64,000 nucleotides of DNA from Microthyrium microscopicum (Eukaryota): positions 1,192,538 through 1,256,537 of the forward strand of contig MU004235.1 of assembly GCA_010405405.1 (NCBI GenBank). Reading direction: 5' to 3'. The notes beneath the pieces are model-generated. The model was given only the letters and a program-made list of their open reading frames with translations, ran no database searches and was not told where the DNA came from. Of the stretch, positions 39,984 through 62,110 are shown piece by piece. The position numbers and the translations under genes are program-made. Position 1 is the stretch's first letter; every line of letters starts with the position of its first letter.

Positions 39984-40066
39984 ATGTGATAGGATCTTAT
40001 CTGTTGTGATATAATCTGATTAATGTTAGAAAATGTTAGATGATGTGAGATGATGTTAGCCAATAG
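39984..40066 (+). promoter_or_regulatory. Phased WT(C/G)T array + CCAAT cassette (copy 1)
   Basis: About eight ~10-bp-spaced atgt/atct/ttgt motifs ending in gatgttagCCAATag. Confidence 0.65.
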
Positions 40067-41084
40067 GATTGCGCCATTCGATTCAGCCTTGCCGACGAAT
40101 ACTTTCTTGTTTCCGCAACATCGATTTGACAGACAACTCTGAGCGCGTCCCGGATATGGGACAGTATATTGACCTTCGTTATACGTTGAATGTGGAGGAG
40201 TTCGGAGTCGCTGCAATTTCCTATTTAAGCGTTAGTTATGTCTGTTCGTCGGTTTGGGCTCATTCTAGGTTAGCTTGAAGTATGGAGATGAGGGTAATTT
40301 TACGCCGCCAGGCAAACTAATGTTGTCCATATCGATGGTTCGAATTGACGTCTCAGCCTTGCTTGTTGTAACACAGGATTCTCCGCAAGGTGATATATGG
40401 AACGACAGATAATCGTATTCCATCTCGTGTTGGTTCCATGATCTTTTAAGTTTTGTCTAAGGATGGTTGGTGATCGGGGTTCTCCTGCCGTGGATAGAGT
40501 AGCGGCCTCCTTCAGCTTCAATATAGCCTTATCTTAGGAAGAAGTTGGTGTATTGTCCAACGGGGTTGCAGTATGGTAAGATATGCCGCGTATGCGTCTA
40601 AGGTAGCGAGGAAATCGATAGAGGCGTAGGCTGGTTCCAAGGAGGTAGTTCCTCACTTTCTGCTCCAGTGTTAGCCATGGCATTCAAGGCAATGAGGATG
40701 TCGATGTCGGTGCAGGTTGGTAGGGTGTGGTGGGAGGTTTATCGACCATTTAGTCCAGTAGTAGTCGCGACTACTACTGGGCGGTGGTGAACGTCTTAGA
40801 GAGTTTTCGAAGGAAAAAGAAGGGGAAGAAGAAGTGGTACATGTCTACAAATAGTGATGATATGTTATGCTCTCGACAGTCCAGTGAGCTTTCAGACTTT
40901 AGTAATCCTGTTGAGAAGTATATGCCTGTTACCGCATTTGGGACCTCTAGGACTTATAACGGGTGGATTTGCTTCATTTGCTCTGGTGATATTGTGAGCG
41001 TGGTCGAATCGCTCTCTCTGTTTGTCGGATCATTTCGAAGTGCTTCTGTTGCTCCTTCCGCATAATCCACTGGGTAATTGCGCA

Positions 41085-41362
41085 GTGGGTATCAACGGCG
41101 CTGTATATTGCGTCTTACGCTGGCCATTAACGCCAACTCGGTGGGATCGATTGCTCGGGTATCGAAGTCGTCGATTTGTAGACAGCGTAGCTGGCGCGCT
41201 GCGCTAGTCAGCAATGCTAGTTCTGTCGGGTCGATCGGCTGTATATTGGCTTCATCGCAGGGCGGGTGAACAGCGCGGCTGGCGCGCTGCAGTAACCATC
41301 AATGCCAGTTCTGTGGGGTCGATTGGCTGTATCTTGACTCCATCGTAGGGCAGGTGAAGAGC
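41085..41362. repeat. Diverged tandem array, ~88-bp unit, ~3 copies
   Basis: acagcg(t/c)(a/g)gctggcgcgctgc...aatgc(t/c)agttctgt(c/g)gggtcgat(c/t)ggctgtat at 41182 and 41270, with a weaker copy upstream. Confidence 0.75.
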
Positions 41363-41869
41363 ACAATTGGGTGTCTTTGGTTCTGTTGATTGTCGAAGTT
41401 GTTTTGCTAGCCTCTGTGTTAATTCTTTTAACTTCTTGCTGTATAAACATTCAGCGGGAAGCTATGGCAGCCGGAAGTAGCAAGAAGAGTGCTATTGGAG
41501 AAGTAAACATGGTGAAGTTTGAGAGTGTTCTGAGCATTGTCTGAGAAGGAAAGAGGATAGGCGAGAAGAGTAATGTGAGTGAAGCAAATGGAAAGTTATA
41601 ACCAAATAACGCACTTGCTAGCTTGCTCATCCTTTTCTTTTAGCAAGATCTTCACCTTCCTAATGTTTAGGTACTACGTATCGGTGTAACCTAGACCGCG
41701 ACCACCAATTGCCCTACGCATTGCTCCCGACTCGGTGGCAGTTCTCTCTAATTACCGAATAGTCGTTGGTGACGTTTATATATATATGTTGCCGAGGGAG
41801 GGAGCCGCGGTGGCATGTAGGCGGATGGCGGAGTAGATCCGGTGGGCCTGTTAGACGTTGGACGTTCAC

Positions 41870-43480
41870 TTCTTGCCAAGGTCGTTGTTAAAGCGAGATG
41901 CTAGCTGGCTCTCTTGGGTATTACTCTCTCTGAACAACCGACGGGTAGTTTCGAGGTTCGTTGTTTCTTGTGATAGATAGACCTGGAAGGCACATGTACC
42001 GTTCGAGGCACCCGTTCGAAGACCGCCTACGTAGCAAGGTAATGACTCCAGAACCTTACTGAAGTAAAGGTCGATGAGCATGCTGTTTATGTACATTTGC
42101 GTCGATCGGCAAGAAAGACTGCACCTGGGTCTAATCATGAGTGTTGATATGAATGATCATGACAGGAGATAGAGAGAACCTTACTAAAGTAGAGTTCGAT
42201 GAGCATGCTGTTCATGTGTTTGCGATTGATCGGCAAGAAAGAGCGTACGTAGGTCTAAATCTGGGCTGTTAACATGACTATTCATGTCAATCGATAAACA
42301 GGGAAGGAAACTGACCGGTAAATGTCCGTGTGGATTTGAACTCTGGTGATGCTAGATCCAGTGGCCGTAGCTCATATGCCGCTTCGTAGTGTGATATAAG
42401 CAAGGAATCAGGGAGGGTTTGATAACTGTGGTTTCCTCTACATCTAACAGGATATTCGCGAGTCATAAGGTCATAGCATTGCCAGCTGCTTTGGTTGCTG
42501 CAATTACTGGGGAATCGGGCAGTGCATGCCTACCGTGGAAAGGAAGAGGTAATCGTAGCGGTTCGCGTGTTCTCTCGCACCGCCGTTTATGAAGAATGTT
42601 CTTTGCCGCTTGCTCCTCATAGCGGTCACGGTTCGGACGAGGTTGAGGAAGGATAGGGCCGCAGTAAGGATCTGTACTTGAGACATGTATGTAATCCTCC
42701 CAACGTAGATGCATCATCTACCTCTATGGGTCTCTTTGGGAGGGTTAGTCTGTGCAAGAGTACCTTCAGCCTTGGATGCGTCTTCTACCTCGTCTTGGCC
42801 TATTTGGAAGTACTTCCTGGAGAAGAGATAGAGGTAGAAGATGCATCTACGAGCTTAGAGGCGACGTATCCGGTACGAGCATTGATAATAGAACTGCTAA
42901 GCACTTTGGCTTGCCCTACACAGGAAGAAGTACGGCAGTGGCCCACCTGGATGGGACGTTGATCTGCCCCCTACGGAACCATGATTAGTACGGATTGTCT
43001 GAAGTGGTAGGCATAATCCCATCGTTTTTTCATACTTATTCTACATGCCTCTCGACACCGCTTATATTTCACTTCTTCTATCACTCTGGTATCTGCCACC
43101 GCTTCCCACCCACGTGTATTGCCGTTGTCCTCCAGTCGGATTACGTTGATTGAAGCCAAAGTCCTAGTTCAAGTGTGTCCCGTGCTCTACTTCTGTATTG
43201 TTGCATAACGTGTGTTCCACGTTGGGCGAAAAGATGATAGAGCCAATGTTGGATAGTGACTGTCTTCCTCGTAGATGGTTTCGATATATCGTGCGAGATG
43301 TGGACAGGGAAAGGACCGATGCCAGAGCGATAGAGGTTGTGGGGAAGTATAGAACGAATATAGGTTATGATGTGAATGCGCGACAGGTACCTAGGATTTT
43401 AGCAAGTGCTTAGCAAGATTATATAATGGAGACTTCGCGCGTAATTTGGGTTTGTCTTACCTGGCAGGAAATATGCTCTT
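41870..43480 (-). pseudogene. Probable degenerate multi-exon cargo gene
   Basis: Minus-strand intron-like signals (e.g. gtatga...tactaat...tag at 43035-42971) flanking protein-like frames interrupted by TAG/TGA stops; bounds approximate. Confidence 0.3.
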
Positions 43481-43610
43481 TGAGGAGCTGTTTCCTAGCG
43501 TCCAGAACGAATGGGAATTGTGATTGTGGGTTGTTGGTAATTGTGGATTGTTGTTATCGGTAGACTGCCGGTCAGTTGGGTTGGTAGTAAGGTCGGTTTT
43601 ATTTTCGTCT

Positions 43611-43660
43611 GATATGATGCGATCTGATGTTGGAACTTGTTAGAAGATCTTAGCCAATAG
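43611..43660 (+). promoter_or_regulatory. Phased array + CCAAT cassette (copy 2)
   Basis: gatgttggaa cttgttagaa gatcttagCCAATag. Confidence 0.6.
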
Positions 43661-44199
43661 AATGCCAGGAATGGTTCTTTACCTTGGTAGTACGCAATAC
43701 AGAGATTTTGACTTACTCTCTTGCGGAGTTTACTATAGAATATCGACTTGACTGAGGCAGGACTACCTAACAATAACTAGAATGAGTGTGAGTAGGTATA
43801 AGCTAGCGGATAATTCGGTACGTATGACATTGGAGATTCCATCATAATTATTTTGTATATAGCTGTCTAAGGCTTGGAGTTAGTAGAGAACAATAAAGCG
43901 ACGAGAGAGATCCCGACTTACAGTCAAAGCGTTAGAGCTATTCCTTGATTTATGCCCAACTTGTCGTTATGCCGGAAAAGAATATGTTATTGAGCCAGTG
44001 CTGGATGCGGTTGTATGTCTTGTGGCCGCATGTTCTTCCTTGGGTTTTGGTTTCGGGCTCATTCGCGTAAGCTGAACGAGTTGCAAATGCTTGTATATTA
44101 CTTAGTCGTTGCAATGTTCAGGTCTGCTGCACTTCCGGCCCGTCGATCTCATCCTGGCGATCGATTGTTATGCAACCGGCGTAGCTTGTTGGGACAATC

Positions 44200-45190
44200 A
44201 AGGCCAATGTTCGACTCACTAGCTCTAGCAGTCGAACGTTGCGTAGCTTGCGAAGTTGGTGTACTTGGCTAGGCCAGAATGGTTTGCCCCAAGCCCGTCA
44301 TTCTCGCTCTGGTGGTAGAAGGTTGCGAGCTTACGAAGTTGGTGTACTTGGCTAGGCCACAATGGTTTGCCCCAAGCCCGTCATTCTCGCTCTGGTGGTG
44401 GAAGGTTGCGAGCTTGCGAAGTTGGTGTACTTGGCTGAGCCAGGAATGGTTTGCCCCAAGCCCGTCATTCTCGCTCTGGTGGTGGAAGGTTGCGAGCTTG
44501 CGAAGTTGGTGTACTTGGCTGAGCCAGGAATGGTTTGCCCCAAGCCCGTCATTCTCGCTCTGGTGGTGGAAGGTTGCGAGCTTGCGAAGTTGGTGTACTT
44601 GGCTGAGCCAGGAATGGTTTGCCCCAAGCCCGTCATTCTCGCTCTGGTGGTGGAAGGTTGCGTAGCTAGCGAAGCCGCTACAGTTGGGTGGGTGGCTAGC
44701 ATGACAGCGCTGGTTTGTTCCAAGCCTGTCACCCTCCTTCCAGTGGTTGATTCGCTATGTCGCTGGCGAAGCCGTTGTAGCTGGGTAGGCGGCTAGCATG
44801 ACAGCAATGGTTTGTTCCAAGCCTGTCACTCTCGCTCTAGTGGTCGAACGTTGCGTCGCTGGCGAAGCCTTGACAGACGGCTGTCGCGTCGAAGCACCAC
44901 AGCCATGGTTTGTTCCAAGCCTGTCACTCTCGCTCTAGTGGTCGAACGTTGCGTTGCTGGCGAAGCCTTGACAGACGGCTGTCGCGTCGAAGCACCATAG
45001 CCATGGTTGTTTTAGGTCTGTCTGTCAAGGCTCTAGTGGTCGAACGTTGCGTTGCTGGCGAAGCCTTGACAGACGGCTGTCGCGTCGAAGCACCACAGCC
45101 ATGGTTGTTCCAGGTCTGTCTGTCAAGGCTCTAGTGGTCGAACGTTGCGTTGCTGGCGAAGCCTTGACAGACGGCTGTCGCGTCGAAGCG
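44200..45190. repeat. Tandem array of ~10-11 related units (spacings 83, 84, 84, 84, 96, 97, 98, 98, 98 bp)
   Basis: Anchor (a)tggtt(t)g at 44279, 44362, 44446, 44530, 44614, 44710, 44807, 44905, 45003, 45101. Confidence 0.95.
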
Positions 45191-45489
45191 CGTCGCGAAG
45201 CCATTGGAAGGGGTGAATGTGGCGAGTTTGTACTGGTTGCCAGTTGGTGAGAATATATTGGCCGTTGCCGTACTACCAGGAATAAAGGCCTGGTATGTTG
45301 TTAGTCGTAAACCAAGATGGTCAGCCAAGGAGGTACTGCTTACATCAAGACTTCCAACTGCTCAAAGCCTACAGTCAGATAAGTTGTAGTGGAGCTAGAG
45401 GTGACATAGAATTGGTGTCTTTCTCTCATAGAGAGAGGTTGGAACTTCAATGTTGGAAGTGACGTCTGGAGCGTTCTACGAGGGTTGTC

Positions 45490-45580
45490 TTATATAGTAA
45501 CCCTTAAGTTTGAAGGCATCCTATTGGTCCACATCTTCGAATATCTTCTAATATCTCGTCAGAATATGAAAGATCTATAA
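45490..45580 (-). promoter_or_regulatory. Phased array + CCAAT + TATA cassette (copy 3)
   Basis: Minus strand: agatct..attct..agatat..agatat..agatgtggaCCAATag, then ctatataa ~25 bp downstream. Confidence 0.65.
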
Positions 45581-47544
45581 TTAAATAGCAATAACTTCCC
45601 TAGACTGTGCCTTTCTAACTTCTCAACGCAAGTGAGATGTACTAATCTCTACTACTCTGACCGTCAGCGCCTTGTTTAAATGTAGCATACTATATCCAAG
45701 CAGCTCCGAGTCTCTTGCTTGGACCTAGGTTGTTGTAGTGGATTAAGGCGTTGGGACTAGAGTCTGCTAGATCATATCGAGTAGATGCGACTTTGATTGG
45801 TCTACATGCTGTTGTTGCTTTCGGTGGAGGTATGGCCACGTCTGAGTAGAGATGTTTCTCGATAGAGCAGTAGATGACACATTCGAACTTTTGAGGTTTC
45901 AAAGTCTGAACGATTAGAAGCGATATTAAAGCCCGGAGTAACTCTGTATCCGATGGAAGGAAGCCAACAAATCGTGTAAATTTAACCGCTTGAGCTTTTC
46001 AATGTTTTACTTCTTCTACTTCTTCTTCTTTAACACACGTCTATACAGAATATTAGCAGAAGAGTCAACAAACAACCAATATACTTTACTAAATACTCCC
46101 ATATCACAAGACAAGTCGTCCTCGCATCTTTTGGCCTTGACATCAAGCTTTACACCCTCTTCAACCTATTATGATGAGTTCAAAGACGTGCCGAATGGTG
46201 GCATATCGACCCGTCATGATAATCTAGCACAGAGCACGCGTGTTTACCAAGCAAGTCGTTGAAGTGGCATTCATGCTTCAGTACCTCCTTTGAGTGCTGC
46301 GGGAAACCCTTTAGAACTCAATCATGGTGCAGTCCTCCCGTAAAAGCTCCCGCCAGGTCTTGGAACAACATCTGTTGACGAGCTCGAAAAGTCGTCAACA
46401 GAGGCTGCGAGCTCGTTAGGGATTTGACCAGGTATCAGTGTAGCGATTGGATTTGACAAGCTCGCAAGAATATTGCCGCGAGCCATCTATCATTTTGTCT
46501 CGCGAATACTAGGGGCGGTCTCCATTAGTTACATCATTTCAATATCAGAACTAAGGACTTACAGGCATCCTGAGCATATCTCCACACCTCGATCTACTCG
46601 CAGGCACCGTGAATAGCATCACGTTCTGGACGCTATGATCCAAAGACTCCGTCTGCGTGTGAAGCACTTGCTACGTCGCAACACCGTTAGCCACAGTTTT
46701 GAGAACGGCTGCGCCAAAAGGGCCAGCGTCCAAAAACCAATTCCATGATAGATTGCAGAACTTCTTCCCGTGAACTAATGACAACAAATGTATCTTCAAT
46801 CATTGTCAGCGAGTTAAGGGATGCGCCATAGTGCACATGCTTCACTTTGCTATATCTGGGATTGTCAAGGGGGAAAGGATAAGCGTACCGTCAGCTATTG
46901 CTTAGTTCATGGCGTACAAGATTGAACGGGGCTTAGATAGGCATGCTATAGCGATTGAATTCGACCACAAAGATCTTGTCTTCAGCCATTAAGCTACAAG
47001 TAGTACTGGTTTAGTATGGAGACTCAATGTTTCTAAGTCTCTAGATTGTAACAGAGTTAGTATACAGAAAGACTGCGTTTAACATATTAGAAGGATGATA
47101 CTTACCTTAAACTCTAAACCTTAAATATTGCAACATCGATATCCATTCCTAGAGAACTAGAGCTTGCTAGTTTATAAGATAGTGCTATGATCTCGCGTTA
47201 AAGAATACTTAAATAAGAAGATGTAGCTTTCAAGAAGTTCTGTACTACAGTTCAACATAAAGAAAAGATAGAGACGGATTTGGTATACAAGTGTTTAACC
47301 ACGTAAGTGATTCAGAATATAAGTTTTCAGAATAGAAAGAAACATAGCCAACGAAGGGGCTAGCAAACGGCAATATAATTGACTGCGTAATCTGCTATCA
47401 TAACTCTAGGGGATAAGGATGTTTGGGAAGAAATAAACGATACGCGCTGCTGGGCTGCTTACCGCATTACTTAGACTTTAATGAAGATGTACCTTTGAAT
47501 ACAGCGCCAAAGAAAAAGGTAGTCCTATTGTCGTTGGGTACTCC

Positions 47545-48065
47545 GCCGCATTTCTTGATGGACCATGACAAGGAAGTATTTGGCAGCGGTACTGTGAAAA
47601 ACGAGCGCGAGTAAGGATGGGCGGTGTGCCGTGTCTCTTGATGGTCTATAACAAGGAAGTATTTGGCAGCGGTACTGAGAAAAACGAGCGCGAGTAAGGA
47701 TGGGCGGTGTGCCGTATCTCTTGATGGTCTATGACGAGGAAATATTCGGCGGCGGTACTAAGAAAAACAAGCGCGAGTAAGGATGGATGATATGCCGTGT
47801 CTCTTGATGTTTAAGAACAGGAAGATATTTGGTAGCGGTCTGAAGGAAAAACGAGTGCGAGTTGTAGTATGCGATATGCGGTGTCTCTTAATGTTTAAGA
47901 GCAGGAAGATATTTGGTAGCGGTCTGAAGGAAAAACGAGTGCGAGTTGTAGTATGCGATATGCGGTGTCTCTTAATGTTTAAGAGCAGGAAGATATTTGG
48001 TAGCGGTCTGAAGGAAAAACGAGTACGAGTTGTAGTATGCGATATGCGGTGTTTCTTAATGGTTG
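47545..48065. repeat. Tandem array, 83-84-bp unit, 6 copies in two subtypes
   Basis: Anchor (a/g)gcggt at 47585, 47668, 47751, 47834, 47918, 48002. Confidence 0.95.
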
Positions 48066-48239
48066 ATAAGTTAGCAACAACTTGCAGTGGGTACTAAGAC
48101 ATAGGAAATATACGTATCATTGGCTACTGAAATGCCAGTTAATGGCCCATAATAAGAGCTTCGTTTAAGGTGATCTTTACTACGCTAAGGAGTATATATC
48201 CGTAGTTGACATGTTGGTTTACTGTTAGGCATTGAGGAG

Positions 48240-49205
48240 GTTTTGGCGGCGGTGTTTGGGAGGAAGATGTGGTCTTGTATTGTGTAAATGATACTGTTAG
48301 AAGAACGCTGGCGAGCGGACTTTTGGCGGCAATCTTTGGGGAGCAAGATGTGTTCTTGTATTATGTAAATGATGCTGTTAGAAGAAGGCTGGCGAGCGGA
48401 CTTTTGGCGGCAGTCTTTGGGGAGCAAGATGTGGTCTTGTATTGTGTAAATGATACTGTTAGAAGAACGCTGGCGAGCGGACTTTTGGCGGCAATCTTTG
48501 GGGAGCAAGATGTGTTCTTATATTGTGTAAATGATGCTGTTGGAAGAAGGCTAGCGAGCGGATATTTGGCGACAGTCTTTGGGGAGGGATATGATAGTGT
48601 TCAGCGTAGCGAATCGTGTTCTTGGAATGAAGCTGGCGAGCGGATTTTGGCGACAGTCTTTGGGGAGGGATATGATAGTGTTCAGCGTAGCGAATCGTGT
48701 TCTTGGAATGAAGCTGGCGAGCGGATTTTGGCGACAGTCTTTGGGGAGGGATATGACAGTGTTCAGCGTAGCGAATCGTGTTCTTGGAATGAAGCTGGCG
48801 AGCGGATTTTGGCGACAGTCTTTGGGGAGGGATATGATAGTGTTCAGCGTAGCGAATCGTGTTCTTGGAATGAAGCTGGCGAGCAGATTTTTGGCGATAG
48901 TCTTTGGGGAGGGATGTATGGTATTCAGCGCGCGAATCGTGTTCTTGGAATGAAGCTGGCGAGCGGATTTTTGGCGATAGTCTTTGGGGAGGGATGTATG
49001 GTATTCAGCGCGCGAATCGTGTTCTTGGAATGAAGCTGGCGAGCGGATTTTTGGCGATAGTCTTTGGGGAGGGATGTATGGTATTCAGCGCGCGAATCGT
49101 GTTCTTGGAATGAAGCTGGCAAGCGGATTTTTGGCGGTAGTCTTTGGGGAGGGATATATGGTATTCAGCGTGCGAATCGTGCTCTTGGAATGAAGCTGGC
49201 GAGTA
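48240..49205. repeat. Tandem array, 80-82-bp unit, 12 copies in three blocks
   Basis: Anchor gcgag at 48311, 48392, 48473, 48554, 48636, 48717, 48798, 48879, 48959, 49039, 49119 (gcaag), 49199. Confidence 0.97.
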
Positions 49206-49693
49206 GACTTTGAGAAAGAGAATGCTTGTACCAAGTTGAGGATGCCGCTTAATAGCTGATGTTGCGATAAGACTTTTGAGTGCGTGTAAGGCTTTGGAAA
49301 GGATTATGCTGTGTGCTCGAATCTAGTGTACTGGTATGTGATGAAATCGGCTTTGCGACTTTGCCTTTGGCTTTTGAGGAAACATCGGTGCCATCTTGTG
49401 ATGGGCGGGAATATGCGTTGCGATATGAATTGGTTGTTGCTTTGGACGTAGAAGATATCAACATTGGCCAGCTTTGTAAGATAAAGAATGTGGGGATGCC
49501 AATGGCCAGAGAGATCGCGGCATAGACGATGAGGAAGTTATGTGTAAGCCGTAGGTGTGAGCGACGCTGATTATGCCTAGTCTTAAACCGTGGTTGTTGA
49601 GGTGAATTGTATCGTGATGGAAGGTATGAATGTTGAAGTTAGATGCATCAGCATGAAGTTGAAAAGACTTTGAAGTTACGATGCGATGTTAGG

Positions 49694-49790
49694 TATTATA
49701 CGCTAATGATTAAGTCTCGCTAAGAGCTGTTTGATTGGACTAACATCTTTGCACAACTTGAAACATTATTTAAGAACGTCCCATATTATC
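49694..49790 (-). promoter_or_regulatory. Phased array + CCAAT + TATA-like cassette (copy 4)
   Basis: Minus strand: gttctta aataatgttt caagttgtgc aaagatgttagtCCAATca, then tataat ~35 bp downstream. Confidence 0.65.
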
Positions 49791-50782
49791 TAAAAGTAGT
49801 TAAGCGTATCTTGGTCTGCCCGTTCGGAGTAGAACCTTAAATCTAGCTTTGCTCAAATACTACTGGCTTCGTAACTTATTGCTACACCTTTCGCCTTTAT
49901 GATCTGGTTTCATTCTACAGACAATATACGGGTACTTAGAATCATCTTCTCTTTCGTCACAGACATAATGATTATAAGGTGAGGTTAATGACAAGCTCTA
50001 GAGTATATCTTCAAATGTTGGGTTACCTGTCAAGCCAAAGCAAGCCATTGATGTGCCAACGAGAGTAATAGTACTGCTAGTTTCTAGTCCGGGGCTCTAA
50101 GCAATTATGATTGGAGCAGATCTACAAAACAGTTCGACTTGTGGACTGATGTGGACTAGCTAGTATTCAGATGTGCAACGCACTGTCATCCCATTCTGAA
50201 GGAAAGAGATTTTGGAAATCCCTTTTTGACTTTGCAACGTCGACTTCTGAAAGCATTGCTGCTTAGCAGCAGTTTAAGACATTCTGATCGCAAGCTAGCA
50301 AGGGACTTTACTATATCATTGGATGGCTCATGTCCATTACGTTATTTGAGACATGATCTACGGCTTAGCTCTATCGCTACTGGATGTAGTCAGCCGAAAC
50401 GAGGAATGTTCGACTAGGATATGATCCACTAACATGGCTTGCATGCCGCTATGCCGATCAGGCTCCATAGATAAAGACGAGATGAGCTAAAAACAGGGAT
50501 TACCTGATCTGAATTCATGAGCGCGGCATGGTTAGTCGTAGATCGCCTATCCCGTTTATGGTTAAGAAGCACATTATCACTCGTACTCTGAGAGTACTTG
50601 TAGAGTCGTAGAATTTGGCAACGGCTCACAGGCATGTAAGCCTACCAGCGAGCGGCGACGTAGTGTCAAAGACGATGGAAATTCTCTAAGTCTGGTCTCA
50701 AAAGATTGAACAAGAATCATTATTTATCTATCTTTGGGCAAACAATACATATCCTGTAGGAAATCATTGTCAGGGTCGTTGG

Positions 50783-52447
50783 TCAAACCAAACCCTTTCG
50801 AATAGCTGCATCTCGAGTTTCCACTCCTTTGATTGCCATCTCGTGTTGTTCGGTCTTCCATGACTTCCATTTTTCCTCACCAGCAACAAGGCAAGCAATT
50901 TGCCGAGATGTGAATTCGCTGAAGTCCTCCTTGGCCTTTCTGGTCTTCGCGACATTGGGACGTGGCTTAGGCGCCGATTGCTTGTTGTCCTCATGAAACG
51001 AGCAAGTCTCATGACATCCTTCCATAACACAATTTGTACAGGCTCCCTTGAACAGAACGCTTCCGTCCTCGACTTTCATAATTATGCAGGTAGTGCATGC
51101 CAATGTTGGTTCTTCACTATTCTTTGTTTGGGATGGACCAAGACTTCGAATTTCAGAGCAACGCTGACAAGAGTATTCAACCCGACCCGTGGCAAGGCAA
51201 TATGCCATCGCGGCATATAGTGAAGGTAGTGTCTTTAGAATATTTGCAAGCTGAGGAGTGGAACGTTTATGCCATTGTAGACCTCGTACCGGTTGGTATT
51301 TGAGGAGTGCTTGAAGCATTGTCAGATCAGTGTCATTGGGGATCCATTTTCGGAGCAGGTGGAAGAGTAGTTGCACAACTCGGACATCGGTAGTTTTGGC
51401 GCGGTCATTAAAGATAGACACTTTCATGTCACCGAACATATATTGCTTCTCCAAGAACCGTAGAACCGGGACCCGAAGGTCCGCTTTCGGCGTCGACTTC
51501 TCGCTCGTGGATGATTTAGAGGATGGTGATGGCTTCTTGACCATGACTTGAGTTGGAGAAGTTGTTGGACTTTTAGGTGATGCCGTAGTCTTTGTGTTAT
51601 TTCGCGACGGAGTTATGGAGCCTGTATTGGTTGTGTCACCTTGGGTACTTCGACGCACGCGTGCTTGACTATGAGCAGCCTCCTCTGCGATAGGTTCCAA
51701 GTTGCTCGCTCGGCGTTTTTGGCGTGCCTCTTTCTGCTGTTTTGCTGTTTCTACTTCGCTACTAGCTATGCGGTACCTTTCCTGCCAAATCCGCGAATTT
51801 CCTTCATGGGCGCTATGTAGAAGCATTGCATTATCACGGCGGCGAGTTGCTGCAGTTACTGGTGATTCTTCGCGATCTGGGGTTGGCCGCACTTCTTCTC
51901 CTTTTAGAGGAGGAATAAATCCATATTTGAAACCTCTTTCTATCGCAGCAGCATCCTCTTTACTACGAACTGGCATCAATGGATGATCATAATCATAATG
52001 GCTCTCGTCCTTTTCGACTGATTGTTTGATGGAAGTGGAAGCCTGGTTTCTGTCGCTTTGCATGGATAACGCGGCGAGTTGATTCGCCGTTTTGCTGGTA
52101 GGAGTGACTGCGGCTAGCTGGGCCTGGTTAGGCTTTTGAGGAGTTTGTGGCGATCGTGCCGACATTTCTTGACGAGGATGTTTTTCGCCGCGAAATTGGG
52201 AATTGGTAGAAGGTAGAGATGTCTGCGGTGATCGGATTGGAGTGGTTTGACGGCTCACTGAACGTGCTTGGTTTGGATTCGTAGACTGCTTAATTGGAGT
52301 GGCTTGTCGGGTAGATTCTGGTGACGAGGATTTGTCTGAGTTCAGGGTGATTGGGTCTTTAGCAGAGCTTCCAGGTGTTTTCGGTGTGCTTGAAGCAGTT
52401 GTAGCATGCTTGATGTCAGAGCTTGTAGATGCACGCTTTGGAGCCAT
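50783..52447 (-). CDS. 554-aa protein: long S/T/P/K/Q-rich disordered region plus C-terminal Cys cluster (DUF3716-like putative Zn-binding domain)
   Basis: Intact ORF; TGRVEYSCQRC...CTTC...FKGACTNC....CHETCSF. Confidence 0.75.
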   Translation of the reverse strand: MAPKRASTSSDIKHATTASSTPKTPGSSAKDPITLNSDKSSSPESTRQATPIKQSTNPNQARSVSRQTTPIRSPQTSLPSTNSQFRGEKHPRQEMSARSPQTPQKPNQAQLAAVTPTSKTANQLAALSMQSDRNQASTSIKQSVEKDESHYDYDHPLMPVRSKEDAAAIERGFKYGFIPPLKGEEVRPTPDREESPVTAATRRRDNAMLLHSAHEGNSRIWQERYRIASSEVETAKQQKEARQKRRASNLEPIAEEAAHSQARVRRSTQGDTTNTGSITPSRNNTKTTASPKSPTTSPTQVMVKKPSPSSKSSTSEKSTPKADLRVPVLRFLEKQYMFGDMKVSIFNDRAKTTDVRVVQLLFHLLRKWIPNDTDLTMLQALLKYQPVRGLQWHKRSTPQLANILKTLPSLYAAMAYCLATGRVEYSCQRCSEIRSLGPSQTKNSEEPTLACTTCIIMKVEDGSVLFKGACTNCVMEGCHETCSFHEDNKQSAPKPRPNVAKTRKAKEDFSEFTSRQIACLVAGEEKWKSWKTEQHEMAIKGVETRDAAIRKGLV

Positions 52448-52904
52448 TGTTATGAGTTTCAGTAGAAGAAATTGTGTCTTGTAGTTATTTGAAGTATTCT
52501 TTAGATGTAGGAGTACAAAGAAGAAGAAGAAGTGGAGAAGTTGATGGATCGAGAGATTAAATAGACCACAAACGCAGGCTCCTACTGTCGAGCCTAAAAT
52601 TGCTCTATCGTGAGAGGTTACTGCTTCGCTTGATTACTGAAGCTTCAGCCTTCAAGGCTTCAGAGCTTCAAAGCGCTCAGCCAGTCCGGTCCTCCCTTGC
52701 TACATGTAGACGCATCTCACGATTATTACCATCTTACCTACTCCATCAGTGAATTGCTGACTGCCATGTTGTAATGGGCACATCCCGAAGGAATAAAGAC
52801 GCCTAACTATGTGGTTGATATCCGATAGCATTCTGGGCAGCCGGCGCCAACAACGTCCGAGCCCTTCCGGATTGCGTAGTTTTGGTTTTGTGAGTGCTAT
52901 GACT

Positions 52905-53250
52905 GTTGGCGCAAAGAACACTGTTTCATCGTCGGAATGGGCGATGAGGAGGATGATGCGCTTATTGCGGAGGATAGGAGGTACGGTGGATGTTTCATGG
53001 GCGCAAAGAACATTGCTTCATTGGCGGGACGGGCGATGAGTAGCACGATGCGCTTCTTTCGGAGGGCGGGACATGTAATGGATGTTTTCATAACGCAAAG
53101 AGCATTGCTTCATTGGCGGGACGGGCGATGAGGAGCACGATGCGCTTGTTTCGGAGGGTGGGACATCTGATGGATGTTTCCATAACGCGAAGAGCATTGC
53201 GTTGTTGGCGGGATAGGCGATGAGGAGCACGATGCGCTTGTTTCGGAGGG
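52905..53250. repeat. Tandem array, 92-bp unit, ~4 copies
   Basis: Anchor (g/a)ggcgatgag at 52939, 53031, 53123, 53215. Confidence 0.92.
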
Positions 53251-53639
53251 TAGGAGACGCCCCATGATTCTTCCCAAAGCCGTGCAGAGTCTGTGTTTTT
53301 GTAACGATATACTGTTGTAGTTGTTGGCTCGCCGGATACACTTGCGGTGGTTATTGCGGGCTGGTTGGTGGTTCCTATCGGCCGAGGAAAAGATGGTATA
53401 GAGGGTAGTGGTACTCGGATCAGATAGATGTTTCAAGGGCGCGAAGAGAACAGTAGAAGTACTGGCAAGGGTATAGAATTCGAATATCAGCGCAAGAAAT
53501 AAGAGAGGCAGTTTATAAGATAGAGGACAGGAGATGTGGGGGCAAAGACTGGTAAGGATTAGAAGTTGATGCGGTATTAAAAATTAATGGGTTGGGAACT
53601 AGATAAGATATGGACTATATGATCAGAACTAAGGTAAAT

Positions 53640-53692
53640 GATTGGCTCAGAAGTAATAACATCATCTAAGATCTTGAAAGATTGTTACATAA
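53640..53692 (-). promoter_or_regulatory. Phased array + CCAAT cassette (copy 5)
   Basis: Minus strand: atgtaacaat ctttcaagat cttagatgat gttattactt ctgagCCAATca. Confidence 0.6.
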
Positions 53693-54344
53693 CTCCGTTC
53701 ATCTAACCAGATTCAGTAAGATCAATATTAGCGTATGGATCTCTTACTACAACCTTCTGAATTCAAGTAACCGCTACTCCTTAATTCTCACACCAGCATT
53801 TATACAATATAAAATGTCTATACTTGTTTCACACACTATGTCCCTATTAGCCATCACACTACAACAGACAAGCCTACCAGACGGAACCACCATCTCATAG
53901 AAACACCTTCAATCACAAATAACTCCTCATCTGATTCACTATCAGTATAATCACGACGTAGAATATCCTTGCTATAAAAGGACTGGATCGCTCTGCTAAC
54001 TCCTTTTACAGATCAATCAAATAGAAACGAACCGTCTCCTCTCTCCAGCCTACTATACATCCCTCCGACCTACCACATATCCAATCTAGGAATACCTTGC
54101 ACCCTAAAACAAGAGCTTTATCATCTAGACAATCGGTATCACTACGTTACACGCAAGAAGCCTATCACGGCATCGATTTGCATATCTCTATCAGCAAAAC
54201 AACGAATCCATAATAGGTGCCGCCCTCAACCACCAGCCGGCCACCAGCCGTACATGAGATCAACCATCAAGTCGACTATCATCTCTTACATCAATGCCAA
54301 CCGCGTTCAATCACCAGCCGGCTCATTGCCCCTTCCGGACCGCT

Positions 54345-54590
54345 TGCCAAATATTCCGTCAATTTCCAGAAGTTGGTAACGATTACACAAAATACATATC
54401 TGGCAGTACTTCCATGCAAAGTCCCTTCACTAAATATCTTGTCAATGTCTCGATGCTAGCGGTGATTTTACAAAATACGCCACTGGCAATGTGCCCATCA
54501 AAAGCCCAATCGTCAAATTCTTCATCAGTCACTGAATATTAGAGGCGACAACGCGAAATACAAAAGCGGCAACACCTCCCATTGGAAGCC
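54345..54590. repeat. Highly diverged tandem array, ~84-bp unit, ~3 copies
   Basis: Recurrent aaat..tca..aaatac..ggca..cca skeleton at ~84-bp spacing. Confidence 0.45.
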
Positions 54591-55329
54591 ATGGTTTGCA
54601 CACTATGTCAACCTTTGAATATTAAGGACAATGACACAGAATCTACACCTGGCATTACTTGCTATCCGGAACCGCTGCCATGGAGGGTGTCTCATCCAAC
54701 CAATATTGGCGGTAATTGTACAGAATCTCTTTTCAAGTGGCACTTCTCAGCAAAAGAGCCATATCAGTTGAAATTACTTTTAGTAATTGTTCGCAATAAC
54801 TGGACAGCAGAATCAAAGAGTATAATTTGTAAGGCCCGTTCTCCACTCCAGTTAATGCATTGTTTATCTCCATCAAGTCAATAATATCTCTTGTAGTTTG
54901 GTAGCCGTGGATTACAGAAATCTTAGCTTTCTTCAGACGAAGACATCCCATGGCATGTTCTTACGTACAAACTATACATGGTCTTGTTACCATCTGCTTC
55001 ATATTATCATGTAAGATGTAGCGCTTCGTCAAAGTCCAAAACTACATAATCACATTGGACGATAATACGGAGATTTGATATATTCGACGATGTCACGATC
55101 ATAAAGAACAATGTTAGAAAGATTCAAGTTCATAAGCCAGTGTTATCTTCCTTGGCTACAACCGACAAGTAAGCAAAGCCTTCAAAGTACTACTATACAG
55201 GATCTCGTTGGTTATCACCTCCCACTCGCATTACCCTCAGCGACCAAACTGAAGCTGAATCCAGAGCCACCAGACATTAACGGCAGCCAGAGCTAGCGGA
55301 TATCATCCGACTGTAATCACGTCCAACAA

Positions 55330-56420
55330 TCACGACCATGTGCTTCCTCGTGGGTTGAGTACAGCTGGAAGATCGGCCATATCAAGGAAAGGAGCGTGAA
55401 ATGTTGGCGGCGGGAGGCTAGTATCGATCATTGGAACTGATCCAGGTGGCGCGGTACCGTAAACCCATTCTCCGTCTCCTGAGGCGGGCAGATGAGGAAC
55501 GACGTCTTCGAAACTGCAGTGTACGCCATCCCACATACAGCACGCACATTGACCATTTCGATGTCCAGGGAGATTAACGCACCCCATCATCGCTGGCCAG
55601 TCGATTTGGGACCGAGAATGAGGAACTGCCGCCGGGCAATGGGACAGGCATCGGGTGCATTTTCGATCAGCTGTGTGGTATTTCCCGCGACTGTATAAGA
55701 CCATGGCTTCGATAAAGACACCAGCGATCTCAGCACCAGACTGCTGAAAGATTTGAGAGAACAAGTCTGCCATTGGGTGCGGGATGCCGGACTTTCTAAT
55801 CGCACATACACGAAACGGGTTACCGCTTCCTGCGAGAAAACCATTTGGACGGGGAGGAACCGCCCAGAGTCGCCATAAGCCTGGGTCCTGACTAAAGGTT
55901 AGTGAAATGATTCGCAATTGGAAGAATATATACTTACGTTCACGATCTGGACTAAGACCTGGAAGATATAACAGGTCAAAGGGTGGTGGAAATCGATTTG
56001 AGCATACTGGCTATTGTTTGGTCCCCAGCGAACTAACTGTCCACCCGGATTTCGCACCGTCACCTGTCGCCAAGTAGGGAGTGAGCTGTTATCCTTCAAT
56101 CCGAGCGCAACACAAATGGCCGTCATGGTAGAGAGCTGAAAGGGCAGGCCAATCCGACCGAAAGGACGTCGCGCGTTGACGTCGGCTTGATGTCGCACAC
56201 GCGCAAGTGTCTCCTGATGCTTTCTCTCCTGGCCCAATACGAAGACAGCATAATGGTATGACATGAGTGCCACAGGAATGAAACTACGCCAATCGAAATT
56301 GGCTTTGGTCTGAGACTCAGACCATACTGCGCGGGGGGAGAAGTTCTGCTCATAGAACTGCCAAATGCTCCAAACGATGAGGGGCGCGTGGAAGTGAACC
56401 CAGAAGCGGAGGCCAGGCAT
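55330..56420 (-). CDS. ~346-aa two-exon protein with C-terminal DUF3716-like Cys cluster
   Basis: Exon 56420-55938, intron GTAAGT..ACTAAC..CAG, exon 55887-55330; SRG..RKCTRC...GCVNLPGHRNGQCACCMWDGVHCSF. Confidence 0.7.
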
Positions 56421-57949
56421 GGTGCTGACAATGGACGTGGTTTGAATTATGGGTTGGTTATTGGGGGTGTAGTGCTCGAAGTTGTTGTTATGGTTTGGAG
56501 TTGTGTTGGGATTTAAAGGTCGAGAGGTTCTTAGTGGGTCCCACGCCGTCGCCTAGGCAGCGTGATTGGACAACAACCACGAACCGATGATGTCAATAGC
56601 TTCCCTTCCAAAATTATGAAGACTGAAGACTGATTCATTGGGCAGTTTGGGTAGCTGGAAAAGCACGAATACGCGCGAGTGTACATCCATGGAGCTGAAT
56701 GGAAGTGTAAGTCGTTGGAACGTGATTGCAGGATGGAACTTACAGCTTTCTCGTTACCAAGCTGACAGACAGCTGAAGACTGAAATAGAATTGCCTCTCC
56801 CAGCGCGAGTAGTAGGAGGAAGCGCCAGGCAACAGCAAATTATGAAAGACAAGAGATCCTCACTTCAAAGGTTGGCGGACGAGAGTCTGCGTTGATAGCA
56901 CTGGGTGAATGAGGTCAGTTCTTGAATAGACACGGCACAGTAGAACTTACAGTCTTTCGATATGAGGCTGAACACGAGACACCATCGCAGCATATAGTAG
57001 GCAGCGCAAGTAATCAAAGCAAATGAAGATGAAGAAGTCCTCACTCTCAAAGGGAGTGAGGAACTCTAATGGAGAGTCAAAGAGTGGTGTGAAGAAGTGA
57101 TGGAGGTGTAGACAAGTGGAAGGGTTTTATAGACAACAACCTGATCAAACGGCTGCCTGCTCAGCAAGGGATGAGTAAGAGCGATCAGCGCGGCTGCGGA
57201 TTACAATGTGACCCAAGCTGAAGTGGTGAATAACTGTATGACCATCGTTGTGTGACGTGATAGCCTTTACCAGCGTGATGTTCTGAAGAAACCTTACGAT
57301 TGATGCACCATAAACGGCAACGATGTCTACGAAAATAGTCATCTTTCCGTAGCAATAGCAGTAAGTGCAGGCATCAGTGACATTGAAAGAGTACATGGAA
57401 GCTAGGAACTCGCAGTGTTGATAGAAGGACGCAGACCAGAACGGCCAAGAGCAACGACAGTTGGTAATTACGGCCAGAGCATTGATATCAGCTATTACAG
57501 CGACTGAATATATAGAAAAAGGCAAGGAAATTATAGTTCTAATAGACAGTGATCTCTACAAGAAGAAGTTGCCTTCTGCCAACATAAAGTAAGGTATGGC
57601 GAGAGCAAGGGTTTCAGGGAAGGCAAGATGATGAACACAAGTATCCAACACAAGTAACAACTTGACGGGTATCAAGGAACTTACTTATCTGATTCCATAA
57701 TTTGATATTGACACACAGCGAGTGCGCAGAGCCCGTCCAGTAGTCTCCCAGTCGACGGTAACAAGCAGCCAGTAACGGATAGACCAAATCAGTGTTGGAA
57801 GTGCTGTCTCTACGACAGAAAGACTTGGCCAAAGTCTAGCAAATAAGAATGGCGGTATTAGCATCACGGGGGATGCGTAGCAGATATAACAGTAGCTCTT
57901 CCAAAGCTGAACTATTGAGAGTGGGGGCTGCATAATCGAAGCCAAGGAT

Positions 57950-57995
57950 GCTAGGTTGATTTTCTTAGGACATGTTGGAAGATGTTAACCAATAG
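57950..57995 (+). promoter_or_regulatory. Phased array + CCAAT cassette (copy 6)
   Basis: tttcttagga catgttggaa gatgttaaCCAATag. Confidence 0.6.
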
Positions 57996-58575: not shown

Positions 58576-60084
58576 TTAAGTCGACGCACTGGCCGAACCT
58601 CCACCAACGGGCAAAATCGCCACGAACTCCCCACGTTCCTTCGGCAATCTTCCCAACGCCCCCTTCTTCCCAGTCGGTGTATTCACAGGTCCGACTATAC
58701 TGCAACCACCCTTTAGCGGCCCTGCCGCACGGCACCGCGAACACCGGAACCCAGGTTTTTTGAGAACATTTCTCGCCTCCGAAATGTATGCTCGGCACAC
58801 ATAACCCCTAAGCTGGCAACGCTTACAAGCGTCATCACCAGTCAGAGTCTCACCAGCATCCGTCTCTTCTATACGACCGATATGAGTCGCCTTACGCTTC
58901 TGGTCGGGCGACATGGCCTCCCACTGGTCAACGGTCACTGACCAGAAATAATCTGGTACGAGAGGGCGACTCAAAACATCGCTGCTCTCGTGAAAATGCC
59001 AAGGGATTTTCTTGACCAAACCGCAGGCCTTGGCAACGGCCATGGCCTTTGAGTTAAAAGACCCAACCGGGCCTAAAGAGGAGGCCTCTGCGATAGCGGC
59101 TGCTGCGCGAGCTGCAAGTGAGGCTTTTGCAGCTTCAACTTCCTCGTCGAAGTCTGCATAGGTGGTGCTATCGTGAGCACCGGCGGGAGAAATTGGGGCG
59201 GCAGGAGATGGTAGGTCGAGAGGAGACGGTGTGGCAGCACGCGCGGCAAAGAAGTTCGCAGCGCGAGAAAAAACTCCGCCAAAATACGGCACGCCGGCCA
59301 ACCAAGGAGAAGGGGGAGAGGGAGGAGGAGAGCCCCAAGGCGTCCCAGTGGAAGGAGCAGCAGAGCTCTCTCGAGAGCGGAGAGGAGAAGGAGACCGAGA
59401 AGGCACAAACAAATCGCGACCATCATCTTCGTCGTGATTGTCGTCGTAGACCAGCGTATCATCCCCATCCCCATCCCACATATACGAATCCTCCTTTTCT
59501 GCAGCAGGAGGAGCCTTTTTAAAGGCGAGCGAATCCTCCTCTTGCAAGGCAGGCAAATCGCTATCAAAATCGGCGGACAACGCCAAGGACTCTCGCCCAG
59601 AAGAACGCGAGAAAGCGGGCGAAGCAAGGTATCCGCGCTCATCCGAGAGCTCGGGCTCAGACGACGACGGTTGTTGAATTGCGCCTAGAGGCGCAACCGC
59701 GCGAGAAGACCGCTGTGGTGGTGGTGGCGGTGGTGGAGGAGAGGAGGGAGGAGTAGGTGGATTTGAGGGTGGCGAGCCCCAGACTACCGCCCATTCTTCT
59801 CGATCATCATCACTATGATATTGTCAACATCATTATTTGCGATTCAAAAGCAAAGGAACATACTCATCAGCGTCGGGAAGAACGTCCAGGAGGTCTACGC
59901 GCTTATCGTAGCGCGAACGTGTCTCTCGTCGACGGACCGTTCTAGATTCCCTGACGACCGCCGCGTAGGCTTTCAGGCCATATATCTTTTTTTTACCCTC
60001 AAAATTATGTTCGAACGGGTTGGTGCGAATATACGGCGCATCACGGCGCACTAAATGTGCTGGAGGCTGGTGATATCGAGGCAT
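58576..60084 (-). CDS. ~485-aa two-exon Pro/Ser/acidic protein with C-terminal CxxC-x6-C...CxxC...C zinc-cluster-like motif
   Basis: Exon 60084-59864 splices (GTATGT..TTGAC..TAG, 59863-59813) in frame into the 336-aa ORF; ACKRCQLRGYVC...FRCSRC...GGCS. Confidence 0.7.
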
Positions 60085-60300
60085 CTTCAAAAGTCCAATG
60101 GAAAGCTGACGTTTGTAAAGGGTGTATGAAGCTGATGTGTGTGTCGTTGAAGAGCTTCAAAATGTGGGGCAAGGGGAGGTTTTATCATGGCAACACTCCT
60201 ATCCAACCCGCACTCTTACGGAAACGAAGCCCAGTCAGTTTGGGCTATTGTTCCCTATTGAAGCCATCCCCAAGGACAACATCTTATTGTTCTTTCCTGA

Positions 60301-60352
60301 AGTGTGAAGTTCTGGCAAATTGTGCAAAGTTCTGCAAAGATGTTAGCCAATC
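60301..60352 (+). promoter_or_regulatory. Phased array + CCAAT cassette (copy 7)
   Basis: gttctggcaa attgtgcaaa gttctgcaaa gatgttagCCAATca. Confidence 0.65.
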
Positions 60353-62040
60353 ATATGCCAGAATGTCTTCGTGGGAGCCCATTTACTGTGGGAGCGTCAA
60401 TGACGCAAGATAGCGGATATCATGAGGCGGCCCAATTGCGACGGCCTCATAATGGGACAGATCTCTTGAAGACACGGGAGGTCCACGGGTCTGTTCTTCA
60501 AGTGCTGGAGGCGTTATGAAAATCTGGAGTGCTCGCCGTTAATCTTGGAATCAGATATTGTGGAACGAGATCAACTCACCGAAAGCCACGACGATGCCGC
60601 CACCACAAGGTGTAGGACAAATGGCTACTGCGCAGTCTACTTCCAGGCCTTGGAATGGGAGAAGTCTGACCCAGTCCGATGGCACGCGACATGAATTTCG
60701 GAAGATGGTCTCCACTATACAAACTGAAGTCATCCAGATTTGGCAACCAAAATCTCGCGCCGTAAGACTAGGATTGAACCCACGAGATTGGCGACCATGT
60801 CGTCGCCCGTCTGCAAGCAAGTCAGCGGGATTCACGTAGTGTTGTCTGTTGAATGTCGACCACTTACTGGCTACTCATGAGCCCATGAAGATAAGCCATA
60901 ACAGGCTCAGAATGGGCAGTGTTCAAGATGACAGTCCGCTCGGGGCTCGTCAGGCGAATACAGATCAACCTAAGGAACTCTCTCAGCATGAGGCTTGACA
61001 AATAAGTTAGGGATATCAGACCGAATACGCACAAATGAGGACCTGATTTCCCGGGCTGCTGAGCTGCTGAGAAGTAGTGAATGCGATTTTGAATCCAGCG
61101 CCGTGAACTCAGAGGCAGTGACCGGAGATTTGATGTCAGCACCACGAAGATGATGATCAGGCCTAGAGAAGTGTGAGAATCAGTCTAAGAGTTGAACTTG
61201 GAAACAGACCTGAATAGCCTTGTACGCGCGCTGACTAGAGGTTGCTGAGCGAGTGAAGGAACTCAAAACTACGCATAGAAAGGCGTGTAAGCAATGTGGC
61301 ATACAACGTCAACATCAACGTCAAACTTACTGAATATCTCTACAAGGCAAAGCTTTGTGAAGCTCGGATGTGGAGTGAAGGTATGATGAAGAGATGTGGA
61401 GGATCTGGAGCGGCAGATGTGGTTAAATACCCATCAGGCTCCAGTCTCAACCGGTTCGAGCAGGCACTATGGTAGGCTGCATTCACTTCTCACCTTTCAG
61501 CTCACCGACTCCCTTTCTGCAGGCACTGATGTTGACGATGTCGCTGCGTGGTGGTTAGTTCCTCCCGCGTGCCGTAAGGATCAAGTTGAGCCGGTGGTGA
61601 CTGCGCTTAGCCTGCTATCTCAAGCCGTTACCTTGTATGGAAATCCAATCTTTACCCGGACGCAGCGAGATACAACACCAAAAGCAACATACCATAATAG
61701 ACAGGAGGCCACCGATATTACGGCAAGACCTTTCGAGGGAGAAGTGAACGTATCTTCTCACGCGCTTTAAACGCTGTGGGGTGATGGCGTTACACCAAGG
61801 GACGGCCATGCTGGCGGACAGTGCATCAACCAAAAGCTTTGACGAGAGAAGCACACAACATAACTCATTGTACAATTGTGCTTTTGCTGAAAATGCGGCA
61901 AGGGTCGTTGGCATGCATGGCTTCCATTGACGGCACAATGATAGAATATGGTCCTGTTGTCAGTAAGCCTATGGCTGCATGCTACCCTGTCTAACTCTGC
62001 TGGAAACAATACACCTGGGTAGCGGAAGTTCAGTGTTGTT

Positions 62041-62110
62041 ATGATATATTTGAATTTGTGGGATTATCTGATTTGATCTTAAATGATCTTGGTTGATGTT
62101 AACCAATCAG
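62041..62110 (+). promoter_or_regulatory. Phased array + CCAAT cassette (copy 8)
   Basis: atgatatatt tgaatttgtg ggattatctg atttgatctt aaatgatctt ggttgatgtt aaCCAATcag. Confidence 0.65.

Follow-up and report, generated by a model that had tools for sequence, protein, structure and literature searches.

Phased 10-bp arrays abutting CCAAT boxes in a predicted DNA transposon of Microthyrium microscopicum: a possible private regulatory module

The transposon En/Spm (CACTA) carries 12-bp subterminal repeats bound by TnpA, and MuDR has terminal promoters. CCAAT boxes usually lie roughly 60-100 bp upstream of the transcription start; HapX, a host bZIP protein, has one site, downstream of the CCAAT, and the ERV9/LTR12 repeat unit measures about 40 bp. 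Here we describe rows of 10-bp units that end in a CCAAT (hereafter cassettes) in a 64,000-nucleotide stretch of Microthyrium microscopicum DNA (assembly GCA_010405405.1, contig MU004235.1, positions 1,192,538 to 1,256,537 of the forward strand; hereafter the window, numbered from its first letter). The cassettes recur every 2-4 kb over more than 22 kb of the interior of a predicted DNA transposon, which holds a DUF6589 transposase gene, two DUF3716-like genes, a gene for a six-cysteine protein and a helicase gene. An initial annotation of the window had listed eight cassettes and proposed that they form a private regulon, in which an element-encoded protein would bind cooperatively next to the host CCAAT complex and co-regulate cargo or shield it from silencing.

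The sites resemble those of En/Spm and MuDR in being short, repeated, overlapping the element's own promoters and read by an element-encoded protein, with promoters and protein both candidates here; core genes are convergent, as in MuDR. They differ in their strict 10-bp period and in their spread across the interior and into an intron, each array abutting a host CCAAT, whereas those of En/Spm and MuDR lie at the ends. The bipartite HapX site, as described in passages of PMC7144946 and PMC4232046, likewise sets a second DNA-binding protein at a fixed distance from a complex-bound CCAAT, but in our element 2-11 phased sites lie upstream, their sequence is lineage-specific, and the partner, itself a candidate, would be transposon-encoded. 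Passages of PMC11853044 and PMC12065363 describe the ERV9/LTR12 U3 as part of a mobile element with tandem promoter/enhancer units that hold CCAAT boxes for NF-Y; this is a mammalian retroviral long terminal repeat, however, with longer units that each have their own CCAAT and without an element-encoded partner. AcademH elements combine a DDE-type transposase with a DEAD/Helicase_C helicase (passages of PMC10045372 and PMC10799480) and have terminal inverted repeats and 9-10-bp target-site duplications (PMC10045372, in part). Compared with AcademH by description only, our element looks AcademH-like in its transposase and helicase content, and both are low-copy in Ascomycota, but phased 10-bp arrays, CCAAT composites and Cys-cluster passengers go unmentioned in the AcademH passages of those two papers. 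REP9, a class II transposon of another Dothideomycete, Zymoseptoria tritici, shares with our element two DUF3716 passengers of unknown function, but has an IS3EU-like integrase and no helicase, and no phased arrays are reported in the passages of PMC8232023 that describe it. No published description of such a composite of phased units and CCAAT was found in the literature on DUF6589, DUF3716, AcademH and CCAAT-bearing transposons, a coverage that excludes the original AcademH paper, which may bear on this claim.

The reading that we favor, at a probability of roughly 45%, is that the cassettes are a private cis-regulatory module, in which phased sites for an element-encoded protein would stand beside a site for the host CCAAT-binding complex (CBC). 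The arrays and CCAAT boxes of the window are as follows.

Cassette 1, 39984-40064, plus strand: about eight units, split into two runs by a 1-bp phase slip; CCAAT at 40060-40064; 64 nt past the DUF6589 stop codon.
Cassette 2, 43615-43658, plus strand: four units; CCAAT at 43654-43658; from 43624 on it lies inside a minus-strand intron (43624-43682).
Cassette 3, 45523-45557, minus strand: three units, two of them GATATT variants; CCAAT at 45527-45523; TATATAA starts 26 nt after the CCAAT.
Cassette 4, 49734-49779, minus strand: four units and an extra T; CCAAT at 49738-49734; TATAATA starts 33 nt after the CCAAT.
Cassette 5, 53641-53685, minus strand: four units; CCAAT at 53645-53641; precedes the first DUF3716 gene in sense orientation.
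Cassette 6, 57959-57993, plus strand: three units and CCAAT; points at the 3' end of the six-cysteine gene.
Cassette 7, 60297-60351, plus strand: five units, including AAGTTCTGCA-type units that resemble those of L003 (see below), and CCAAT; between the helicase and six-cysteine genes.
Cassette 8, 62053-62107, plus strand: five units and CCAAT; 108 nt beyond the helicase stop codon, facing into the helicase gene.
Largest array, 37427-37532, no strand assigned: 10-11 units of 10 bp, partly palindromic (AAGATCTT), inside DUF6589 intron 2 (37393-37583).
CCAAT with a ATATATATAT run, 36418-36435, plus strand: 70 nt ahead of the DUF6589 start codon, with no array of units seen upstream of it.

All eight cassettes lie where the initial annotation had placed them, with three minus-strand positions moved by 2-3 bp, and read alike: a row of 10-bp units, then an exact CCAAT (8/8). 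The first C of the CCAAT stands at 40060, 43654, 57989, 60347 and 62103 on the plus strand and at 45527, 49738 and 53645 on the minus strand. Thirty-two in-phase units from the eight cassettes give the consensus A-W-G-A-T-S-T-K-A-G, with T at position 5 and T at position 7 each in 31/32 units and G or C at position 6 in 30/32. The register of the CCAAT is nearly fixed: it begins at the first position of the next unit in seven of the eight cassettes and one base later in the copy at 49738. The largest array was absent from the eight copies of the initial annotation; a CCAAT at 37573-37577, followed by ATATATAG, stands directly before DUF6589 exon 3. TATA-like boxes, claimed for the three minus-strand copies, were indeed seen there 19-33 nt past the CCAAT (3/8 cassettes), and also behind the intronic CCAAT and behind the CCAAT upstream of the DUF6589 start. 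Counting from the first C of the CCAAT, position +12 is C in 8/8 cassettes, and three have ATGCC at +8 to +12; these shared bases may mark an additional, weaker half-site past the CCAAT, and they are not conserved in the related loci described below.

We then compared the pattern with chance and with the host DNA of the same window. The string WTST-N6-WTST-N3-CCAAT has six matches in the window, all at 40-62 kb, versus 0.13 expected, and the largest count in 100 dinucleotide shuffles was 1, the outcome of a control that the initial annotation had named as a check. Its author had not noticed the pattern by eye in the host half; we likewise found that none of the 117 CCAAT sites of that half (1-36170) has a WTST at the fixed offset, versus 10/76 in the right part, six of these with at least three phased units. 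At period 10 there are 13 runs of at least three WTST, each of them to the right of 36180, and 1, 4, 0 and 9 were counted at periods 8, 9, 11 and 12; Markov simulations of the right part gave a mean of 0.41 period-10 runs and a maximum of 3. A self-BLASTN of the window at E ≤ 10 found no dispersed repeat that links the cassettes apart from their own sequence, therefore the cassettes are not copies of a longer repeat, and the proposal of conserved spacing rather than recent duplication stands. By the same result we rejected an origin of the cassettes as pieces of a dispersed transposable element or of a miniature inverted-repeat transposable element. A generic detector picked up a sole period-10 segment in the host half, at 23454-23510; this 5-bp and 10-bp repeat (CAATC/CAATCCTATC) contains CCAAT strings and is unrelated to the element units.

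A metagenome contig search with the DUF6589 alignment yielded 35 related loci (L001 onwards), and Tandem Repeats Finder was run on all of them. Nine (L001-L007, L024 and L026; 43-48% DUF6589 identity) are rich in 10-bp-period arrays built from units of their own (AACTCCCACG, AACTCCTGCA, AACTTCTGCA), which differ from the window unit. The units by locus are:

L004-L007 and L026: AACTCCCACG.
L001 and L002: AACTCCTG(C/G/T)A.
L003: AACTTCTGCA.
Window, cassette 7: AAGTTCTGCA, bridging to L003.

Conservation inside a lineage extends over nearly all of the 10-bp unit, AACTCCCACG being repeated at 91-100% match, and A-A at unit positions 1-2 is common to all lineages. Of 38 arrays with at least three phased cores in these loci, 18 have a CCAAT within 30 nt of the start of the last core, exactly at position 1 of the next unit in 16/18 and one unit further in 2/18; some of the remaining arrays have one-base variants (TCAAT, CTAAT). 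These loci include overlapping near-duplicate contig pairs (L001/L002, L004/L005 and L006/L007), and collapsing near-duplicates by hand leaves a CCAAT at about 12 of 28 arrays. The design is thus present in related elements, in the same register: the CCAAT is kept while the unit beside it drifts.

Array sites are kept as well. Arrays recur in the intron before the transposase core exon, just past the transposase stop and around the six-cysteine and helicase genes. They precede, in sense orientation, the helicase in L003 and L004, DUF6589 in L005 (713-751), DUF6589 exon 3 in L003-L007 and the window, and the first DUF3716 gene in the window. In L003, three modules of two units plus CCAAT stand directly upstream of the helicase open reading frame (ORF), and tandem repeats of about 100 bp each hold ATTGG and two units; in L024, two units plus CCAATAGGAT make up a 30-bp repeat. 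Whole array-plus-CCAAT modules are tandemly duplicated in L003 (6600-7060), L006 (4216-4464) and L007 (115-402).

The arrays are found in the same loci as the six-cysteine gene, with the exception of L014, a 2.2-kb contig: the gene is present in the window and in L001-L007, L014, L024 and L026, and the other 24 loci have neither arrays nor this gene, including the compact DUF6589-helicase pairs L008, L009, L011, L013 and L015. The genes of the element in the window are listed here, together with one spliced RNA region.

36492-39920, plus strand: DUF6589 gene, predicted DDE transposase; exons 36492-36595, 36645-37392 and 37584-39920; Pfam DUF6589 at E 3e-62.
40841-47463, minus strand: multiply spliced RNA region with no long reading frame; rich in tandem arrays of period 84-166 bp.
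50769-52913, minus strand: first DUF3716 Cys-cluster gene, ORF 50786-52633; DUF3716 at E 0.0014, below the Pfam cut-off; one RNA contig spans all of it.
54012-56591, minus strand: second DUF3716 Cys-cluster gene; DUF3716 at E 0.0058, below the cut-off; one RNA contig, joined across 55887-55936.
58579-59823, minus strand: conserved 'middle' gene, a 415-aa ORF with a C-terminal DUF3716-like six-cysteine domain; homologues in related loci.
62215-63999, minus strand: C-terminal part of a superfamily 2 helicase gene, running past the window end; Helicase_C at E 4e-7; synteny with related loci.

The invariant cysteine pattern of the middle protein is C-x2-C-x6-C-x17-C-x2-C-x9-C in the window; among the loci its last loop varies between 6 and 9 residues, and a basic tail follows the domain in all members. 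Zn(II)2Cys6 (Gal4-type) clusters follow C-x2-C-x6-C-x5-12-C-x2-C-x6-8-C. The protein departs from this pattern, and a search of Pfam with six members gave DUF3716 at E 0.078 and Zn_clus at E 0.94, each in one of the six; a profile search of PDB sequences with the domain gave GAL4 at E 1.9. Matches by hhalign of the six-cysteine profile to the two DUF3716 proteins of the window were weak, with E 0.014 at a probability of 3% for the second. A word-based homologue search with the domain yielded no match, missing even the window's own protein. An Atlas feature search with the middle gene placed a DUF3716-bearing cluster first (score 0.91, 192 shared features), with 16/30 matches in that set, and the fold model of the domain is poor, with a predicted local distance difference test (pLDDT) of 51. 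By these sequence comparisons the middle protein appears DUF3716-like and, as a resemblance only, zinc-cluster-like; it is a proven member of neither family.

The transposase assignment draws on a predicted structure. The 778-aa ORF at 37584-39917 matches at 100% identity a 1062-aa DUF6589 protein (P0001) that a public source assigns to Microthyrium microscopicum, a Dothideomycete. The DUF6589 family has 1254 representatives at E ≤ 0.001, and the AlphaFold2 model of the DUF6589 protein has a mean pLDDT of 66 with a core mostly above 85. An exhaustive VIA-align search with this model was led by ISCth4 (Z 9.2), Hermes (9.0), the P element (8.8) and Tn5 (8.7), with retroviral integrases and RAG1 next at Z of about 7; Foldseek with the whole model against the PDB returned nothing at E ≤ 0.001. 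Invariant acidic residues are present in the DUF6589 alignment. By this model the DUF6589 protein is a predicted DDE transposase with an RNase-H fold, and the element is a DNA transposon. A DEAD plus Helicase_C ORF of 900-1070 aa is convergent to DUF6589 in L003, L004, L009, L011 and L015, and the helicase ORF of the window is its syntenic homologue.

To describe transcription of the element we used the contigs of one public run (X1, presumed RNA, containing 80% of the sampled words), placed on 37350-57349. The run is taken as spliced RNA because its contigs carry canonical splice joints; strand was read from splice signals alone, and uncovered parts and contig ends were not used as evidence. 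Possible transcript ends at depth dips (50023-50689, depth 1.03, next to cassette 4; 56693-57349, depth 53, upstream of the second DUF3716 gene) were therefore set aside. The contigs show heavy minus-strand transcription and hold 23 joints, of which 15 are listed in detail. Thirteen of these 15 are canonical GT..AG introns of the minus strand, 49-278 nt long, and 10 of the 13 have a CTAAC- or CTAAT-type branch site; the other two are non-canonical (GT..TG and GG..AG). Thirteen of the listed joints, 12 of them canonical short minus-strand introns, fall within 42131-47462, a transcript that is unusually intron-dense and apparently non-coding: with the listed introns removed, translation of the minus strand over 40-49.8 kb gave no convincing ORF, though the eight further joints may leave room for a gene of short exons. 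Much of what the initial annotation had called cargo, at 40-50 kb, is tandem-repeat-rich, multiply spliced RNA without a long reading frame. Two further minus-strand joints, at 37984-38042 and 38519-38608, lie inside the DUF6589 coding exon (one GT..AG with CTAAC, the other GT..TG), therefore spliced RNA antisense to the transposase exists. Single contigs cover each of the two DUF3716 genes, the contig at 39291-40659 spans cassette 1 without a break, and the branch point of the intron at 43624-43682 is a cassette unit.

Several observations stand beside these. Some contigs have loose ends whose continuations are absent from the window. One of them matches the window up to 40050, inside cassette 1, and continues with 255 letters that the window lacks; it could be chimeric, or derive from a second element copy with other neighboring DNA. 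Tandem arrays of long period, their units measuring 81-166 bp, occupy 41182-41362, 42050-42286, 44234-45189, 47545-48063, 48241-49203 and 52910-53255, and, counted downstream in the direction of the cassette, each follows one of cassettes 1-5 at a distance of 0.3-2.0 kb. GC skew on the plus strand is strongly positive over 40001-50000, up to 0.365 at 48-50 kb, and AT skew is negative over most of that span except 46-48 kb; the skewed span coincides with the repeat-rich region transcribed from the minus strand. Left of the element, 36 kb hold ordinary fungal genes by Pfam (a P-type flippase, a ferric reductase, a Gti1/Pac2 protein and a fungal-specific transcription factor). An assembly gap of 10 N at 36171-36180 adjoins the left end of the element, and right of it come the DUF6589 gene, the two DUF3716-like genes, the 415-aa ORF, which has no Pfam match, and the Helicase_C ORF. 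The same 71-bp sequence stands on both sides of the gap (36100-36170 and 36300-36370), probably an unmerged assembly overlap that blurs the left boundary; the right end lies beyond the window, and one element copy was compared.

In the private-module reading, the 10-bp period would put all sites of an array on one helix face, where a sequence-specific element-encoded protein would read the units. The best candidate is the six-cysteine DUF3716-like protein, because its gene is the only element gene whose presence tracks the arrays. The CCAAT abutting the last site would be read by the host CBC (HapB/C/E, the fungal NF-Y), and the element protein would oligomerise cooperatively along the DNA up to this histone-fold complex. 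An invariant CCAAT beside a drifting unit is what is expected if a conserved host reader works beside a co-evolving element reader. The fungal CBC needs extra subunits to act on transcription, according to passages of PMC8662346, and in passages of PMC7144946 the complex and HapX are described as recognising DNA synergetically. Jointly the two proteins would make up a control or upstream activating element, active in whichever orientation it stands, that drives or tunes transcription of the element genes and of the abundant non-coding and antisense RNAs. Modules stand before, after and inside genes in either orientation, thus they would be orientation-independent control elements, able to fire antisense, and not simple cargo promoters. 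The initial annotation had placed the copies in spacers between cargo units, but several do not fit simple sense promoters there: cassettes 6 and 8 and arrays of L002, L004 and L006 face gene 3' ends, and most of cassette 2 sits in a minus-strand intron. Its notion of a private regulon is partly supported, in that the cassettes are confined to the element, keep their CCAAT register while units change and co-occur with the six-cysteine gene.

A number of points weigh against this reading. Arrays occur where no sense promoter is needed, between convergent genes or facing 3' ends (L002, L004, L006, cassettes 6 and 8). Cassettes 1 and 2 are oriented along the plus strand, yet all 15 listed joints (37.9-47.5 kb) are on the minus strand. 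The six-cysteine domain is not a recognised DNA-binding domain, given the values above for Zn_clus, DUF3716, GAL4 and pLDDT. The array-bearing loci form about one clade on the transposase tree, so that their co-occurrence with the gene amounts to about one evolutionary event, and L008, which has neither, falls in a fork of that tree without clear resolution. The host control, 36 kb of the left half, is a small sample.

Four other explanations were weighed. The arrays might be binding sites of the DUF6589 transposase itself, comparable to the subterminal repeats of En/Spm, Ac or Mutator and used in transpososome assembly or autoregulation with the CBC as a DNA-bending host factor. The transposase has, besides its predicted DDE fold, a predicted helical N-terminal region, the densest arrays lie inside its own intron (window and L003-L007), in L005 and L004 the arrays furthest out stand in mutually inverted orientation and face inward, and unit drift follows transposase divergence. 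We nevertheless think this unlikely: the arrays are strewn through the interior and do not appear to cluster at the ends, the compact elements without the six-cysteine gene (L008, L009, L011, L013 and L015) have no arrays yet need transposase sites, and an invariant CCAAT held in register is more typical of promoter grammar. Decidedly less probable, in our judgement, is action by DNA shape or chromatin, with phased AA/T-rich steps and a histone-fold complex positioning or excluding nucleosomes, so that parts of the element would stay open or insulated, and no private sequence-specific protein involved. Such a mechanism would suit the strict period, the A-A shared by all lineages and the modules in either orientation and at gene 3' ends, and passages of PMC4889920 and PMC12065363 present NF-Y as a pioneer-type factor that binds many mammalian transposable elements; but conservation of nearly the whole unit within a lineage (AACTCCCACG at 91-100%) points to base-specific recognition, and the link to the six-cysteine gene would be left unexplained.

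That the units are sites of a host transcription factor, so that the element borrows a host regulon, seems very unlikely. The CCAAT is a host site and the host control spans only 36 kb, but a phased unit accompanies 0/117 CCAAT sites of the host half, and with units that differ strongly between relatives each host would need another factor using the same register. Least credible to us, and highly improbable, is that the arrays are neutral hitch-hiking 10-bp minisatellites or an RNA-level signal, the opposite strand reading CTAAC, the fungal branch-point consensus. Slippage can create 10-bp arrays, cassette 2 and the 11-unit array lie in introns, and a unit does serve as the branch point of the intron at 43624-43682; this is outweighed by a CCAAT register kept across divergence to about 45% identity, by the lack of CTAAC in the units of the other lineages, by arrays in both orientations relative to transcripts and by the position of most cassettes outside the listed introns.

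The private-module reading can be extended, in a form that we consider doubtful. An AcademH-like lineage of transposons with a DDE transposase and a helicase would have acquired its own transcription system, in which an element-encoded DUF3716-type zinc-cluster protein polymerises on the phased sites and docks onto the CBC as a private subunit like HapX or Hap4. The module would then be a portable switch, copied before, behind and inside every gene and driving sense and antisense RNAs, and new switch-plus-cargo units would let the element expand from about 8 kb to over 25 kb.

If the private-module reading is true, a eukaryotic DNA transposon would have a private transcription factor and a cis-grammar wired into a universal host factor (CBC/NF-Y), and DUF6589 would be placed among the DDE transposases. 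The unit series AACTCCCACG to AACTCCTGCA to AACTTCTGCA to AAGATSTTAG would be a natural case of co-variation, in which specificity swaps are directly testable, and fungal synthetic biology would gain a promoter module that is compact and orthogonal. It would also give a first functional hypothesis for the DUF3716 proteins, recurrent transposon passengers in Ascomycota according to passages of PMC8232023; in the extended form, DUF3716 would gain a function as a transposon-borne DNA-binding domain. For large cargo-carrying transposons, the finding would provide a handle on their self-regulation, including that by antisense RNA over the transposase.

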